DNA from: an uncultured Fidelibacterota bacterium
GTDB lineage: Bacteria; Fidelibacterota; Marinisomatia; Marinisomatales; UBA1611
Direction: 5' to 3'
DNA: 23,394 bases
Assembly (NCBI GenBank): GCA_913040915.1
Contig: CAJWHW010000029.1
Span: forward strand, 1-23,394
Numbering within the stretch: position 1 is the first letter of the stretch; each line of letters opens with the position of its first letter. Shown here in pieces: positions 15,001-21,000 of the stretch. Position numbers: made by a program.

Positions 15001-18000
15001 ATTTTGATTATTAATCCTAATTTATCGCCTTTGGTTCCAATTGATATCAATGCATTAGGAGATAGTGCTACCATTGAACTTATGGATGCTGTTTTTTCTA
15101 TGCCTTCTCTTGCTTATCGTGGACGTGCTATCACCAATTTTTATGGAAATTATTTAGCATTGGAATATTCTCAGGTTGGTCCTGAATTCAATTCTTTGGC
15201 TAACCCATATTTAGTAAAAAATAAAAGAGAATTTTCCATTTCCGATAAATTGAAATTACTCCAGAATCGTCTTATGTTAACAGTTGGCTATAAATACCAG
15301 GATGATGATATCTTGACGACAGTTGAAAATGTGAAAACACAAAAGACAATGTCTTTTGGATTAAATGCGTTACCTGGCCCCGGGCTCCCTACAGTGAATT
15401 TTACATACCGATCTATCAACAGAGAAAATGGAATAAATGAATTACTATATTTAACAGATACAACTTATACTGACAATCGGGAAAATACAAAAGCTAGTAA
15501 TATGGTTTTTAATATAAATCACCGTTTTTCTTTTATCTGGTCCCATGCTTTAAGTGGTACAGTTGTTATAGTAAATAAAGAAGATAAATTCAAAGATAGA
15601 GATGAAAACTATGTTGATCCTGCTATGGCTACTAATGTTTTCAATATTACACTTTCCACTCTATATGGTAATTCATTAAAAACAACATTCAACCTGACAA
15701 CCAACTCAAGTGAATTAAGTACTGGACCAGGAATCCGAGGAATTCAGGATTTTACTACTACGAATTTTGATACAGAATATCCTCTCTTTAATAATAAGAT
15801 TTTAGCAAAGGGCGGGCTAAATTATGCTAAAGGATCTGGCCTAGTAGATATGTCATGGATTGGATTAAAAACAGGGATACGTTGGAAAATCATGGATGAT
15901 TTAAGGCTCAATACCCAGGCGGAATTTCGTTCTAAAGAAACATCAGGAAATAAGAAAAATACTTTCATTGCTAGGGCAAATTTAGAATACGCATTTTGAT
16001 ATATTTTTTTGGATTTTCTCGAGTCAATTACATCATCCTAATTAATGATTGATTCTCAAACAATCCGTAAAGCGGCCGAGCGAATACAATCTAATATTCG
16101 AGAAACACCTTTCATAAAATCCAAAGCATTTTCAGAAATAACAGATGCTGAGGTTTGGTTCAAATTAGAAAATTTGCAGGTCACTGGCTCATTCAAAGCA
16201 CGTGGAGCGGTTAATAAACTTTTATCATTAACAGAGAAGGAAAAGTTCGCAGGAGTCATTTCAGCATCAACAGGGAATCACGGCGCTGCTGTTGCCTATG
16301 CTTCTGATCAACTGAGTATAGAATGTACAATCTATACCCCTGAAGATGCTTCAGAAGCTAAATTGGAGAATATGAAACAATTTGGTGCAAGAATAATAGT
16401 ACACGGGGATGATTCTATCAAAGCAGAAGCAGAAGCGCGTAAAATTTCGTTGAAGACAGGAAAAACATATGTCTCACCATATAATGATCCCAAAGTGATA
16501 ATCGGGCAAGGTACGCTTGGTGTTGAAATAGAATCCCAATGTGATGGATTGGATACAATTATTATTGCCGTTGGAGGAGGTGGTCTTATAGGTGGCACGG
16601 CAACCTATTTAAAATCTATATGGCCGAATTTATCTGTAATGGCCTGTTCTCCTAAAAATTCTGCCGTAATGATTCATTCTTTGAAAGCTGGAAAAGTTCT
16701 GGGTTTAGAATCAAAACCTACTTTATCAGATGGTACTGCCGGAGGTGTAGAGTTGGATTCTGTAACTTTTCCTATATGCCAACATGTAATTGATGAAACC
16801 GTATTAGTAACTGAGAGACAAATAAAAGAGGCTATGATAACTTACATTAAAAAAGAACATCAGCTTTTAGAAGGTGCAGCAGGAACTGCTGTAGCGGCCC
16901 TCTTAAAAAAGAAAATTGACTTAAAAAATCAAAGAGTTGGTGTAGTGATTTGTGGTGGTAATATTGGTATAGAAACTATTCGTGAAGTATTAAACTGATT
17001 CATATTACACTTACGGCTTTTAGAATATTAATTTTCATTTTTATTCAAGGATTGGTTTTTTACTAAAGAAAACAAGGAAGTAGCTCCTAGACTTTATTCA
17101 TGCCACATAAAGGAATTAGATGGAGTAAATAGTAATGGAAGTGACAAAATAATTGGTAAATTTGCAGAGATAAGTTAACAAAAAATGAATATCCCAAGGT
17201 TCCATCTTGCATTTCCTGTCCACGACATCAAGTCAGCAAAAGATTTTTATAGTGGTTTTCTGGGGTGTGAATTAGGCAGAGAATCAAAAAACTGGGTGGA
17301 CTTTAATTTATTTGGTCATCAAATTGTTGCCCATTTATCACCTCAAGATTGTATAGATGCTTTTTCAAACTCTGTTGATGGTGATCAAGTACCTGTTCGT
17401 CATTTTGGAGTAATATTATCGTGGAATAAGTGGGAGAACTTTTGTGCAATGATTAATGAAAAAGAAATTCCATTCGTGATCAGGCCAAAAATACGTTTCA
17501 AGGGATTACCAGGCGAACAGGGGACATTTTTTATCCAGGACCCCAGTGGCAATATTTTGGAATTTAAATCATTTAAGAATGACATTAATGTTTTTGCTAA
17601 ATAAAATATGCCAAAAATAGATTTCCTTCCTGATAATAAGAGCCTTGAAATAGAGCCAGGCGAAACAATTCTTCAGACTGCTGCAAGAAATGGTATCCCG
17701 CATGTCAATGCTTGTGGTGGAGAAGGAAAATGTACTACTTGCAGACTTCTAATACTGGACGGAATTGATAACTGCTCATCTGAAACTGAAAAAGAATTAT
17801 CCCTTAAGAAAAAAGCGCACACCACTGAGGAATTTAGATTAGCATGCCAAACAACCATTACAGGTGATGTAACAGTTAGAAGGCTAGTATTAAATAAGGA
17901 AGATATTGAATCAGTGTCAGAAAGAAGTGTTTCCGGGAGGTTAGGGGAAACTAAGAGAATTGCTATTCTATTCAGTGATATAAGAGGTTTTACTCCGTTT

Positions 18001-21000
18001 TCAGAGAAATTAACTCCTTACGATGTTGTATTTATTTTAAACAGATATTTTAACAGGATGGTAAAGGCTGTAGAGAGTAACTATGGTACGGTAGATAATT
18101 ATATTGGTGATGGTATGGTTGCGATATTTGGTTTACATGATGAGGAAAACCCGGCAAAACATGCAGTAAAATCCGCCTTGGATATGTGCGATGAAATGGA
18201 TGACATGAAGCCATATTTAACAACTATGTATGGTAAAGATTTTGATATTGGTGTGGGGATTCACTGGGGTGAAGCAGTAGTGGGTGATATAGGAGCAGGG
18301 GAATCAAAACGACTAACTGCAATTGGTGATGCAATGAATTTTGCTAGTCGTGTTGAGTCTGCCAATAAACAATTTCAATCAAGGGTACTTATTTCAGAAG
18401 AAACACATGAAGAAATAAAAGATTCTTTAGTCATCAAGGATTTTATGCGCACCAATCTGCCTGGAATTGAAGGCCGTGTTACACTTTATGAAATAGAAGA
18501 TATAAATTTTGCAACAAATGAAGAAATAGACAATGAGGTTCTTGAAGGTAATATTTTCTGGAAAAAATGCTCTGAAGTAGATTCATTTGAAAATGAACCG
18601 CAACAGGTATTTAAAATAAAAAGGGAAGATATTTTGGTAGTAAAAGTTGAAGGTAACTTTTTTGCTCTCAATGATAAATGTCCTCATGCATATCTCAGTC
18701 TCCAAGGCAGCGATATTGATATAAAAAATGAGACTATCGCATGCCGGTGGCATAAAAGTTCATTCTGCTATAAGACAGGTGAAGTAAAAGAATGGATGAA
18801 AATAAGTAATTTCCAGAAAGTTTTGGGTAAAATGGGACTCAATGCAGAAGCAAAAGAAATTTCTCAGATGGAACGTATTCCAGTTGACATCTATAATACA
18901 AAACAGGAAGATGGATTTATTTGGGTTGGTATAGAATCGAATAATTAAATAAATAGGAAAAAATATGCTTGAAAACAATATTGAATGGACAAAGTTATTA
19001 GATGTAAATAGTTTTGATGAGAACCCTCAGCAATTGGTAAAAGTGAAGAGAGACGACATTCTAATCATCAAAGATGATAGTGGTTTTCATGCAATCAATA
19101 ACAGGTGTCCTCATCTGGGTTTAGCTTTGGATCTGGGAGGGTGTGATTTGAAAGAAAAAACTATTCATTGCAAATTCCATTCAAGTGATTTTTCCTATCA
19201 AACAGGAGAAGTAAAGGAATGGTTAAATGTAAAAGGGTTTGAAAAATTTATGACGTGGTTATTCTCAAAATTTGACGCTGATGCAAAAAAAATGATGACT
19301 ATGGACCCTAAACCAGTAGAAACCTTTCTTACTAAAGTTGAAGATGATTGTGTTTGGGTAGGAATTGATATGGGTGATTGAATGGGAGTAATTAGTTTTA
19401 AAAGTTATATTTACAAAGAAAATGAAAAAAGATACGAAAAAATACCAGTAAATCATGTCGGCAATGATATTGAGTATAAGCTGAATCCTCTGCGAAAAGA
19501 AAAGACAGGATCAGGCGGCAGGCTGATTGCTTTTAGAACCGTAAATTTAATTGGAGATATATTATATGATTGGTTACATGACTGGAAAATGATTGTTAAT
19601 AAAAGAGATGCAGTACGATATAAATACGGACAACAGTTACGACTATCTTTAGAACCTAAAAGAAATTCTTTAGCTCAGAAAGCCGGTTTAAGTTTGAGCT
19701 TTTATTTCTAAATTTTTTTCTATCTCAATTGAGATGAAATGGTTATTTGTAATTCTCATTTTCAACTTGGTCTGTTCAGAACAAACGAACAATTTTGAAA
19801 TTCAGAGGAAAAAGATGGTAGAAGATCAAATTCAAAAACGGGGAGTAAGAGATCCATCTGTATTATCTGCTATGGCCAGGGTAGAAAGAGAAAAATTTGT
19901 CCCAGAACAATTTCGTGATATGGCTTATTCAGACGGGCCTTTGCCCATTGGTTATAAGCAGACGATTAGTCAACCTTATATTGTAGCTTATATGACTGAA
20001 CAACTTCAGTTAGATTCGAACCATAAAGTTTTAGAAATAGGTACCGGCTCTGGCTATCAGGCAGCGATTTTAGGTGAATTATCAGATGAGGTATATACAA
20101 TAGAGATCATTCCAGAATTAGGAAAAAGTTCCATTGATATTTTAGAGAAATTGAACTATAACAATATTTTTGTTCGAATAGGTGATGGCTATAAAGGCTG
20201 GCCGGAAGAAGCGCCATTCGATAGAATAATTGTTACTGCTGCACCAGGAAAAATTCCTGAAAAATTGGTTGAACAATTAGCAAATGGAGGGCAAATGATA
20301 ATTCCTGTTGGAGAATCAGTGTTTTCTCAATATCTATGGATTATAAAAAAGGATAATAAAGGAAATATAGGAAAAGAGAAAATTCTACCGGTCCGATTTG
20401 TTCCAATGGTCAAAGAATAGTATTAACATTTTTCATTTATTTCTGTAAAAACTTTTAATCCTAATTTTTGAACTTATATTTTAACATGGAGAACAAAAAA
20501 TGAAAAAAATATCCACTCATACCCTTAAAATAATTTTATTCCTTTCTTTTCTTTACCCGCATTGCCAAGTCCCTTGTGGAATATATGATGATGCTCTGAG
20601 AATTGTCCAAATGAAAGAAGATTTACTCACAATCCGTAAAGCAATGGGGGAGATAAATAGTCTTACAGAAAAGCAAGTAAATGGACAAGATATGAACCAA
20701 ATGATTCGCTGGGTAAATACAAAAGAAAACCATGCACAGCGAATACAGGTAACTGTTTCAGAATATTTTTTAACGCAAAGAATCAAATTTAAAGGTTATG
20801 GACAGGATGGTAGGAATAAATATATTCAGCAAACAACAAAGCTACATCAGTTGCTTGTCGCTGCGATGAAATGTCGTCAAAATTTAGATCAAATACATTG
20901 TGATAAGGCTCTGGAATTGATTGAACAATTTTCAAACCTTTATTTTGACGAGCATGGTCTAAAGCACTTAAAAGAATTAGAAAAATAAGTAATCTAATTT

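Follow-up and report, generated by a model that had tools for sequence, protein, structure and literature searches.

A conserved class III nucleotide cyclase situated between two predicted [2Fe-2S] domains in uncultured Marinimicrobia

Introduction

Class III nucleotide cyclases are homodimers with their active sites at the subunit interface, and the inputs known to act on them are haem, flavin, retinal, bicarbonate, pH, lipids and proteins. Among the sensor cyclases based on a cofactor are soluble guanylate cyclase, with its haem H-NOX domain, and the globin-coupled adenylate cyclase of Leishmania. Iron-sulfur clusters are likewise used as sensors; in SoxR, FNR, IscR, NreB and AirS they report on redox, O2 or iron status. 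The Chloroplast Sensor Kinase is reported to be another iron-sulfur redox sensor (PMC6949291). The output of these sensors is transcription or phosphorylation, and their clusters are held in folds other than Fer2 or Rieske.

In this report, we describe a gene of uncultured Marinimicrobia whose product carries a class III cyclase domain between domains of just these two kinds. Like the BLUF photoactivated cyclases bPAC and OaPAC, the protein joins a predicted prosthetic-group domain to a class III catalytic domain, an arrangement in which the state of the former is converted to cyclic nucleotide. It differs from the cofactor-based sensor cyclases in that the predicted group is a [2Fe-2S] cluster, present twice, and in that the signal would be electrons, not a gas ligand or a photon. 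We found no account of an iron-sulfur-driven class III cyclase in the full-text literature, leaving aside the principal subscription-only reviews on how cyclase domains are combined.

Results

The window, i.e., the whole stretch of DNA that was analysed, is 23,394 nucleotides long. On its forward strand, an ORF at 17608..18948 (446 aa, ATG start, identified by ORF calling and Pfam) encodes Fer2, class III cyclase and Rieske domains in that order, each scoring above its Pfam cut-off. An initial annotation had assigned these domains to one protein and had counted all eight cluster ligands as present; both statements hold, the Pfam scores being near its figures and the ligands having been checked letter by letter in the translation. 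Its homologue count was also reproduced, at 2210 proteins (E<=0.001). The three Pfam families occur together in 118 of the 120 best of these, and the other two, P0095 (427 aa) and P0105 (399 aa), lack Fer2 alone. All eight ligands, together with the catalytic residues D124, D168, N244 and R248, are unchanged in 14/14 close relatives, among which mean column identity is 77%, and in 9/9 relatives at 30-65% identity. In 47 complete loci, which represent at least five phyla, the frame is unbroken and does not vary in length, and the gene was found in 15 of 301 Marinimicrobia genomes. This conservation refutes the notion of a mis-called or chimeric gene, or of a chance juxtaposition without joint function, for which we found no supporting point and which we regard as practically negligible. 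RNA-library contigs (at least 99% identity) match parts of the gene. The AlphaFold2 model has a mean pLDDT of 87.9 and a pTM of 0.76, the latter suggesting a defined packing of the three-domain chain. Together, the sequence data support a single, real and conserved protein in which a class III domain, complete in its catalytic residues, lies between two [2Fe-2S]-type domains.

The N-terminal Fer2 domain (17635..17859, forward strand; residues 10-84) matches its Pfam profile with an E of 2.9e-10 and 40.4 bits (cut-off 21). Its presumptive ligands are C36, C42, C45 and C80, spaced CX5CX2CX34C in the translation, and they are kept in 147-151 of the 151 rows of the Fer2-cyclase family alignment. 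Plant-type [2Fe-2S] ferredoxins have the spacing CX4CX2C...C. The initial annotation had called the domain plant-type, an assignment that we reject on the basis of the X5 spacing and of the absence of any plant-type ferredoxin from the 60 listed solved matches to the protein. The nearest solved relatives are the ISC ferredoxin of E. coli (1i7h, E 7e-13), 3ah7 and adrenodoxin-like ferredoxins, which, with the four Cys and the CX5CX2C spacing, places the domain in the adrenodoxin/ISC type. Among NCBIfam models, fdx_isc (8.4e-14) and NqrF (7.1e-12) match below their equivalog cut-offs. The best hit, fdx_isc, scores 51.7 bits where its cut-off is 132, so the domain is not an orthologue of ISC Fdx.

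The central domain (17950..18492, forward strand; residues 115-295) matches Guanylate_cyc (PF00211) with an E of 6.1e-22 and 78.5 bits (cut-off 21.9). Alignment to 2w01, 3r5g and 1wc0 identifies D124 and D168 as the metal-binding positions, N244 and R248 as the transition-state positions, and N164 and T237 as the base-specifying positions; the first four are kept in 142-146 of the 151 family rows. The closest characterised cyclases are the class IIIb enzymes CyaC of Spirulina (1wc0/1wc1), CyaB of P. aeruginosa (3r5g) and Cya2 of Synechocystis (2w01), which the catalytic domain matches with E values of 1e-20 to 7e-25 in sequence and of about 1e-16 in Foldseek (TM 0.83-0.89, normalised to those chains). 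The metal Asp pair, the Asn/Arg pair and the class IIIb Thr of these enzymes are all present. Profile, fold and both residue pairs thus agree in assigning the domain to class III. None of the solved cyclases has iron-sulfur regulatory domains like those predicted here, and no solved chain among the matches listed spans both Fer2 and cyclase.

The C-terminal Rieske domain (18559..18945, forward strand; residues 318-446) carries the motifs C358-P-H360 and C379-R-W-H382. Its Pfam match (residues 318-399) has an E of 7.7e-13 and 48.6 bits (cut-off 20.3), Rieske_2 and Rieske_4 match as well, and the pLDDT profile indicates a low-confidence insertion near residues 400-420. Rieske proteins of the bc1/b6f type carry a disulfide pair of Cys; the flanking Cys of these high-potential motifs are absent from the cyclase sequence. 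Ligands, score and relatives all point to the low-potential, ferredoxin-type Rieske group (PF00355): the nearest solved relatives are BphF (2e4p, E 1.2e-06) and TodB, and HcaC is also near, although the matches stay far below the equivalog cut-offs (37 bits vs 150 for HcaC).

A free-standing Rieske gene follows (18965..19381, forward strand; 138 aa; Pfam E 7.8e-15), with ligands C48, H50, C69 and H72 and a conserved C60. The initial annotation's description of it as a paralogue is correct: an alignment of 128 aa with residues 318-446 of the cyclase shows 43% identity (E 3e-41). Its ligands are kept in 14/14 orthologues. The gene lies downstream of the cyclase in 16/16 loci of the clade of at least 75% identity, in two copies at L036 and L038, and it adjoins the cyclase in 0/14 loci of the 55-75% clade and 0/14 loci outside Marinimicrobia. 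It is therefore not essential to the mechanism.

Upstream lies a gene of the VOC (glyoxalase/dioxygenase) superfamily (17185..17604, forward strand; 139 aa; Pfam Glyoxalase E 2.3e-06), the stop of which is 3 nt before the cyclase start. Among solved chains, its product is closest to the uncharacterised VOC protein 3rri (E 7.5e-20), and across 26 orthologues residues H7, H73 and E126 are retained in 24-26. Counting loci with enough flanking sequence, the VOC gene is directly upstream of the cyclase in 15/17 of the clade of at least 75% identity and in 10/16 of the 55-75% clade, i.e., in 25/33 Marinimicrobia loci. It is upstream in none of 39 loci elsewhere, nor is it beside any of the 15 three-domain genes outside Marinimicrobia. 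Two RNA-library contigs span the VOC-cyclase junction, a weak indication. The VOC gene is probably an operon partner of the cyclase. A protein-repair methyltransferase (PCMT) and a nickel superoxide dismutase are encoded downstream of the locus. PCMT adjoins the cyclase in several relatives, but this adjacency and that of the dismutase are not specific, given that an ORF109-PCMT pair also occurs several kb away from the cyclase. The window contains no oxygenase large subunit or reductase.

The core comprising Fer2 and cyclase is widespread, with 877 cluster representatives at 50% identity (E<=1e-30). Among the 150 best representatives, Guanylate_cyc is found in 150 and Fer2 in 144, and this core is the constant unit of the family. 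The extra domains in these 150 (thresholds 1e-4 and 1e-5) nearly all bind redox cofactors: globin (18), haem peroxidase (17), Rieske (10), FNR-type NAD_binding_1 (8) and, more rarely, YceI (3), CDGSH (2) and Ferric_reduct (1). Other cores are fused to membrane domains. A stretch of 40-50 residues separates the last Cys of Fer2 from the first of the catalytic Asp residues in 137/142 rows, and long partner domains occur at both termini in only 1/142. Cyclase-Rieske clusters without Fer2 also exist (3 of 30 Atlas matches), so Fer2 may not be needed for the Rieske domain to influence the cyclase. The Rieske forms belong mostly to one lineage, with members in Marinimicrobia, SAR324, several lineages of Pseudomonadota, Chloroflexi and Methylomirabilota. 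The initial annotation had held that the architecture has no described counterpart. That stands insofar as the literature covered here holds no description; the architecture itself is common in databases, is present in cultured Mesorhizobium, and is a branch of a larger family.

Discussion

The observations to be explained are the domain composition, the conservation of ligands and catalytic residues, the modularity of the family and the gene neighbourhoods. We think it somewhat probable (roughly 0.55) that the protein is a redox-gated class III cyclase with Fer2 as the transducer. In the mechanism that we infer, a soluble, class IIIb-like cyclase would form a head-to-tail homodimer, each subunit of which would hold two [2Fe-2S] clusters, predicted from the ligand motifs: an adrenodoxin-type cluster immediately before the catalytic domain and a Rieske-type cluster after it. 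Through a short linker of conserved length, the oxidation state of Fer2, or the presence of its cluster, would tip the dimer between active and inactive. The Rieske domain would be an exchangeable input module: by donating electrons to the Fer2 cluster or accepting them from it, it would tie that cluster to a particular redox pool or oxidant, a link that would also be served by the free Rieske paralogue of this Marinimicrobia clade and possibly by the VOC protein. An electron relay is in keeping with multicomponent Rieske oxygenase systems, where electrons normally pass from a Fer2 cluster to a Rieske ferredoxin. Indeed, the components of these systems (Fer2-FNR reductases; BphF, TodB, HcaC) include the proteins to which the Rieske domain is most closely related, and the Fer2-cyclase-FNR relatives look like a reductase of this kind into which a cyclase has been inserted. 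The difference is that no oxygenase is present here and that a cyclase sits between the two clusters. The initial annotation had proposed a redox input into cAMP signalling. The redox part remains the most economical reading, and it is strengthened by the fusion of the same core elsewhere to other redox-cofactor domains; cAMP is not established as the product (see below). Direct sensing of O2 or NO by the predicted clusters is possible.

Redox gating must be weighed against the idea that it is the integrity of the clusters that matters, as in sensors of the FNR, IscR and NsrR types. Instead of cycling reversibly, the clusters would be built, damaged or lost with O2, NO, peroxide or the supply of iron and sulfur, and the change from holo to apo form would switch the cyclase; the protein would then report iron status or oxidative stress in iron-poor sea water. 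Two solvent-accessible predicted sites per subunit, the PCMT and dismutase genes downstream (with PCMT recurring in several relatives) and the relatives fused to peroxidase or globin, which point to O2 or peroxide signals, are consistent with this idea. However, clusters of the adrenodoxin and Rieske types usually serve as stable carriers of electrons, the FNR-like NAD(P)H module of 8/150 relatives fits electron flow better than cluster loss, and the gene adjacencies lack specificity. We thus consider it unlikely. Much less likely still is that the protein simply transfers electrons from Fer2 through Rieske on to an oxygenase, be it the VOC enzyme or a different one, with the cyclase domain as a nucleotide-sensing or dimerising scaffold. 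Genes for VOC proteins, [2Fe-2S] ferredoxins and Rieske ferredoxins do cluster in aromatic degradation, where ferredoxins reactivate extradiol dioxygenases, and both the close VOC-cyclase adjacency and the His/His/Glu positions of the VOC protein are conserved. But a scaffold has no need of the strictly conserved catalytic residues, the window lacks the expected oxygenase and reductase genes, the VOC gene is missing beside the three-domain genes outside Marinimicrobia, and the Mesorhizobium gene is paired with a cAMP-gated channel.

Orthogonal to the question of regulation is that of the product, which the redox-gating mechanism takes to be most probably cAMP. The initial annotation's term "adenylate" cyclase is not established: the adenylate-specific class IIIb combination (Lys with Thr or Asp) is broken by N164 in place of Lys, with T237 present. 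Asn occupies this position in 14/14 close relatives and 39/151 family rows, paired with Thr in 27 and with Thr or Ser in 33. The best solved sequence match, the guanylyl cyclase Cya2 (2w01, E 6.7e-25), has Glu there, and its engineered adenylate version (6fht) has Lys. The Marinimicrobia enzyme could thus make cGMP or another cyclic nucleotide, or have relaxed specificity. Yet Lys/Thr, the class IIIb adenylate pattern, is the family majority (79/151), the Glu or Cys of the guanylate pattern is absent, Thr237 is kept, and the mycobacterial cyclase Rv1900c, with Asn at the Lys position, still makes cAMP. A product other than cAMP is therefore conceivable but doubtful to us, and Asn164 makes the product unpredictable from sequence.

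The three-domain protein is not an isolated oddity; it belongs to a large family that has apparently not been studied and that, judged from its domains, seems built to turn the redox state of the cell into a cyclic-nucleotide signal. If so, electrons, redox poise or possibly iron or oxidant status would be a new class of cyclase input, shared by hundreds of sequence clusters in many phyla, and the modularity of the family would be attractive for comparative biochemistry and for redox-to-cAMP reporters. With more reserve, at somewhat less than even odds, we propose that the Fer2-cyclase core serves generally as an "electron-gated" second-messenger module that has so far gone unrecognised. The oxidation state of its adrenodoxin-type [2Fe-2S] cluster would directly set cyclase activity, and fusion to Rieske, haem peroxidase, globin, NAD(P)H-flavin, CDGSH or membrane cytochrome-like domains would have connected it in evolution to different redox pools. 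The Rieske form would then be both the missing physiological input of the channel MloK1 and a redox-to-cyclic-nucleotide pathway of streamlined ocean bacteria.

For the abundant, uncultured ocean Marinimicrobia, this would offer a traceable signalling route. As the initial annotation had noted, the genome encodes five further class III cyclases (six PF00211 matches in all) and two cyclic-nucleotide-binding proteins (two PF00027 matches); the latter, a CRP-type regulator and a TLC-like transporter, are the candidate receivers. MloK1 (mll3241) is absent from this genome. A search with three BLAST queries found no cyclic-nucleotide-binding gene within about 4 kb of the cyclase in 76 loci outside Mesorhizobium. 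The MloK1 literature found nowhere names the neighbouring gene ("mll3242", 0 occurrences), and the searchable channel papers do not mention a physiological trigger; if the redox reading is right, the cyclase would be a concrete upstream partner for this structurally famous channel. In Mesorhizobium, the Fer2-cyclase-Rieske gene lies directly upstream of an orthologue of this cAMP-gated K+ channel (219 nt, same strand; E 2.7e-201 to 4chv) in 3/3 loci, which count as roughly one observation because they are close kin. This neighbourhood suggests a cyclase-receiver pair, and, as the Mesorhizobium cyclase carries the canonical Lys/Thr pair, it supports a real cyclic-nucleotide output.

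A conserved three-domain cyclase

The cyclase is encoded by an uninterrupted, ATG-started frame at 17608-18948 on the forward strand, which specifies 446 amino acids. Pfam assigns to this single protein a Fer2 domain (residues 10-84; E = 2.9e-10; 40.4 bits against a cut-off of 21), a Guanylate_cyc domain (residues 115-295; E = 6.1e-22; 78.5 bits against 21.9), and a Rieske domain (residues 318-399; E = 7.7e-13; 48.6 bits against 20.3). Weaker matches to Rieske_2 and Rieske_4 reach residue 440. The domain composition proposed in the initial annotation is thus confirmed, with all three matches above the curated cut-offs. 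The earlier figures for its relatives were also reproduced: the search gives 2210 homologues at E ≤ 0.001, all three families occur in 118 of the 120 listed homologues, Fer2 alone is missing from the other two (427 and 399 aa), and the names supplied by the sources are generic.

The predicted ligands of both clusters (C36, C42, C45, and C80 for Fer2; C358, H360, C379, and H382 for Rieske) are retained in 14 of 14 relatives that are 63-89% identical to the query, as are D124, D168, N244, and R248, plus N164 and T237. At 30-65% identity, nine three-domain proteins still keep the eight cluster ligands and D124, D168, N244, and R248; beyond these, little is invariant, the set having 47 invariant columns in total. 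An AlphaFold2 model built from 67 sequences has a mean pLDDT of 87.9 and a pTM of 0.76, and low confidence is confined to the two inter-domain linkers and a Rieske insertion at about residues 400-420. Superposed on CyaC, Cya2, and CyaB, the modelled catalytic domain gives TM-scores of 0.83-0.89, normalised to those chains. The query is a real three-domain protein under selection, and we regard an artefact as virtually inconceivable. A complex prediction for Fer2 (residues 1-100), the fused Rieske domain (residues 308-446), and two 2Fe-2S clusters scored 0.15 against a mark of 0.32, a result that we count neither for nor against binding.

Domain types and base specificity

The Fer2 domain had been called “plant-type”, but it is not of that type. 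Its ligand spacing is CX5CX2CX34C, and its nearest solved relatives are the E. coli ferredoxin 1i7h (E = 7e-13), 3ah7, an adrenodoxin homologue, terpredoxin, and putidaredoxin. Among curated families it scores best against ISC ferredoxin and NqrF, though far below the equivalog cut-off of each. The domain is of the adrenodoxin/ISC type while being an orthologue of neither ISC ferredoxin nor NqrF. The closest relatives of the fused Rieske domain are BphF, TodB, and HcaC, all of them Rieske ferredoxins. High-potential Rieske proteins of the bc1/b6f complexes carry an extra Cys pair in the motif; inspection of the query sequence found no such pair in the fused domain.

The term “adenylate cyclase” also claims too much, for at the position where adenylate cyclases have their base-specifying Lys, the query has Asn164. 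The query motif DNYIGDG aligns to DEFMGDG in the guanylyl cyclase Cya2 and to DKFMGDG in 6fht, an adenylate-converted Cya2 derivative. The second base-specifying position is occupied by Thr237, the residue typical of class IIIb. Asn164 is fixed across the close clade (the 14 relatives at 63-89% identity). Among 151 Fer2-cyclase proteins, the specifying pair is Lys/Thr in 79, Asn/Thr in 27, and Asn/Ser in 6, with the others scattered.

A modular family of Fer2-cyclases

With a threshold of E ≤ 1e-30, a full HMMER search of 1.84 billion cluster representatives returned 877 proteins. Among the top 150, most match only residues 1-300 of the query, that is, Fer2 plus cyclase, and the bare Fer2-cyclase proteins are about 300 aa long. 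We applied Pfam to these 150 (38 as single proteins at 1e-4, 112 via the alignment at 1e-5) and found Guanylate_cyc in all 150 and Fer2 in 144. The same 150 representatives carry a variety of additional domains: globin in 18, haem peroxidase in 17, Rieske in 10, FNR-type NAD_binding_1 in 8, YceI in 3, CDGSH in 2, and Ferric_reduct, DUF2769, and DUF4079 in one each. This survey identifies the Fer2-cyclase as the constant unit and, almost always, a redox-cofactor domain as the variable one. In 137 of 142 rows, the first catalytic Asp follows the final Cys of Fer2 at a distance of 40-50 residues. Long additions occur at the N-terminus in 36 rows and at the C-terminus in 49, but at both in only one of the 142. 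Where the N-terminal extension is long (33 relatives), a simple hydropathy scan detected at least three hydrophobic segments in 19; it detected none in the query.

Individual proteins of other bacteria (P0127, P0133, P0136, P0144, P0154, P0155, P0161, P0213, P0130, P0216, and P0165) join the Fer2-cyclase core to haem peroxidase, globin, FNR-like FAD/NAD, CDGSH, YceI, or ferric-reductase membrane domains; one peroxidase-fused member is named as Leptospiraceae. The ESM Atlas independently contains clusters with Fer2-cyclase-Rieske, Fer2-cyclase, Fer2-cyclase-CDGSH, and Fer2-cyclase-globin arrangements. It also holds cyclase-Rieske clusters of about 338 aa that lack Fer2, the cluster at rank 6 having 67 members. 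A Rieske domain alone may therefore also regulate a cyclase.

Distribution and gene neighbourhood

The names given to close homologues assign the organism to Candidatus Marinimicrobia, for which Neomarinimicrobiota and Fidelibacterota are synonyms. The full-length protein (best E < 1e-160) was found in 15 of 301 genomes of the phylum: the window's own family, with 26 genomes, accounts for 14 of them, and another family of the same order for one. A further 181 genomes have a match at the level of the cyclase domain only. To survey gene neighbourhoods, we scanned one genome per species with a seven-sequence alignment, which yielded 474 relatives; the best 79 loci were kept and sorted by tblastn into four groups, and neighbours were counted where a locus had 450 nt of flank or more. 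Two genes adjoin the cyclase in the window. Upstream, a VOC gene (17185-17604, forward strand, 139 aa) ends 3 nt before the cyclase start. Downstream, a free Rieske gene (18965-19381, forward strand, 138 aa; Pfam E = 7.8e-15) encodes a protein that shares 43% identity with the cyclase over the latter's C-terminal 128 residues (E = 3e-41).

Among the 19 loci at 75% identity or above, VOC lies directly upstream in 15 of 17 and the free Rieske gene downstream in 16 of 16, occurring twice in loci L036 and L038. At 55-75% identity (17 loci), the corresponding figures are 10 of 16 and 0 of 14. The three-domain proteins below 55% (16 loci) have neither neighbour (0 of 15 and 0 of 14), and VOC is likewise missing upstream of the Fer2-cyclase-only group (27 loci, 0 of 24), to which the free Rieske count does not apply. 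Both groups above 55% come from Marinimicrobia or marine MAGs throughout. The more distant three-domain proteins come from SAR324, Lambdaproteobacteria, Burkholderiales, Alphaproteobacteria, Mesorhizobium (three cultured isolates), Acidiferrobacteraceae, Chloroflexi, Methylomirabilota, and Bacteriovoracales, and the Fer2-cyclase-only proteins from cyanobacteria, Blastocatellia, Polyangium, Anaerolineae, Desulfobacterota, and others. The free Rieske protein is ruled out as a required subunit by its absence from the 55-75% clade and all other phyla, and the VOC gene, restricted to Marinimicrobia loci, is ruled out as a universal partner.

The free Rieske protein keeps its four ligands and C60 in 14 of 14 orthologues; the fused domain has no counterpart of C60. 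The VOC protein has H7, H73, and E126 as candidate metal ligands, each kept in 24-26 of 26 orthologues, and its sole solved relative is 3rri, an uncharacterised structural-genomics protein. No NCBIfam family was found for the VOC protein, ORF109, or ORF166.

When the Fer2-cyclase core (161 rows) was run through FastTree as a quick tree, 20 of 21 Rieske-fused rows fell in one 26-row subtree (inner node 100), and SAR324 was the closest neighbour of the Marinimicrobia clade with a support of 99; as FastTree results, both are to be read with caution. The Marinimicrobia cyclases are of two types, about 80-90% and about 60% identical to that of the window. Genome G267, of the same genus, has only the 61% type and no free Rieske gene, in contrast to G251, G290, and others. 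This pattern suggests replacement or transfer over simple vertical descent.

Four marine metatranscriptome runs, from four studies, contain contigs that match stretches within 17134-17778 and 18113-18512 at 99% identity or above, and two of these contigs bridge the VOC/cyclase junction. Coverage is limited to portions of the VOC gene and of the cyclase, and nothing follows for other stretches, including the free Rieske gene. Contigs of RNA libraries may also stem from contaminating DNA, and they prove neither transcription nor a single transcript; they are a weak hint that the two genes are expressed and co-transcribed. A scan of 16900-20600 gave 14 promoter-like sites against 16.5 expected and one terminator-like site against 1.4 expected, and operon limits cannot be read from it.

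Discussion

The best-supported reading of these data is that the query is a redox-gated cyclase, a statement to which we assign a probability of roughly 0.55. The Fer2 domain would be the transducer acting on a putative cyclase dimer, because it is family-wide (144 of 150), directly N-terminal of the cyclase domain, and held at a fixed, short spacing. The exchangeable partner domains bind ligands of the haem, flavin, Fe-S, or quinone-like kind; through them, a given redox pool would determine whether the Fer2 cluster is oxidised or reduced, and so regulate the cyclase, in whichever sense. An FNR module would provide an NAD(P)H input, a peroxidase domain a peroxide input, a globin domain an O2 or NO input, and cytochrome-like domains an input from membrane carriers. 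In the query, the partner's role would fall to the fused Rieske-ferredoxin domain. Rieske ferredoxins are the natural electron acceptors of Fer2-type clusters in Rieske oxygenase systems. A specific relay of electrons from Fer2 to Rieske is nevertheless a tentative proposal, to which we give somewhat less than an even chance. In the query's clade, the free Rieske protein, and possibly the VOC protein, could link the fused Rieske domain to an electron source or sink.

Other readings were weighed as well. The clusters might serve as sacrificial sensors of O2, NO, or iron, which we consider unlikely. A protein-L-isoaspartate methyltransferase (PCMT) gene (E = 1.1e-66) and then a nickel superoxide dismutase gene (E = 1.4e-31) lie downstream at 19734-20988 on the forward strand, a possible oxidative-damage context, although this adjacency is variable. 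That the protein is an electron carrier, with the cyclase domain as a scaffold, we find highly improbable; the catalytic residues persist beside the cluster ligands down to 30% identity. As to the product, Asn164 leaves room for something other than cAMP, an outcome that we hold to be somewhat unlikely. With Thr237 in place and Lys/Thr the commonest pair in the family, cAMP is the most likely product, if not an established one.

We rate the proposed redox-gated cyclase as a class III enzyme driven by a new kind of input. Ferredoxin-type domains may figure in review lists of cyclase-associated domains. The architecture had been said to lack a described counterpart, and this holds insofar as a full-text literature search, mostly outside subscription journals and the main cyclase-architecture reviews, found no paper on iron-sulfur-linked (Fer2- or Rieske-) class III cyclases; an apparent match for “Fer2 + cyclase”, PMC9887734, contains no such passage. 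The domain content, however, already stands in automatic annotations. Thus, it is the reading that is new, the existence of the sequence being already known. The size and modularity of the family add interest, as does a link to the channel MloK1.

That link comes from Mesorhizobium sp. LNHC252B00, in which a gene with Ion_trans and cNMP_binding domains lies 219 nt downstream of a three-domain cyclase on the same strand (L083:3989-6667). Its product matches the solved channel MloK1/mll3241 (4chv) over the whole length (E = 2.7e-201), and the cyclase has the canonical Lys/Thr pair. The pairing recurs in all three Mesorhizobium loci (also L084 and L089), which are close kin and amount to about one observation. 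BLAST found no cNMP-binding gene in the flanks of the other 76 loci. The words “cyclase”, “operon”, and “genome” are all absent from the text of one MloK1 paper (PMC4076524), and the papers found with MloK1 terms do not mention a neighbour gene of mll3241.

The window's own genome assembly (1.86 Mb, 71 contigs, 85% complete) has six PF00211 and two PF00027 matches, in agreement with the other cyclases and cNMP-binding proteins reported initially. One cNMP-binding protein is a CRP-type regulator of 238 aa. The other, on contig C34 of the same genome (L100:1420-4590, reverse strand, 1056 aa), has a cNMP-binding domain at its C-terminus in addition to a TLC (ATP/ADP transporter-like) region and is possibly a cNMP-regulated nucleotide transporter.

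Two further features of the window deserve mention. ORF109 (19382-19711, forward strand), which has no Pfam or NCBIfam match, begins one base past the free Rieske stop; in relatives it accompanies the PCMT gene, not the cyclase. Finally, 883-7938 on the forward strand holds a putative 2-oxoacid dehydrogenase/lipoate cluster, whose translations, judged by eye, include an E3-like flavoprotein, a LipB-like protein, a fused E1, an E2, and a LipA-like protein.
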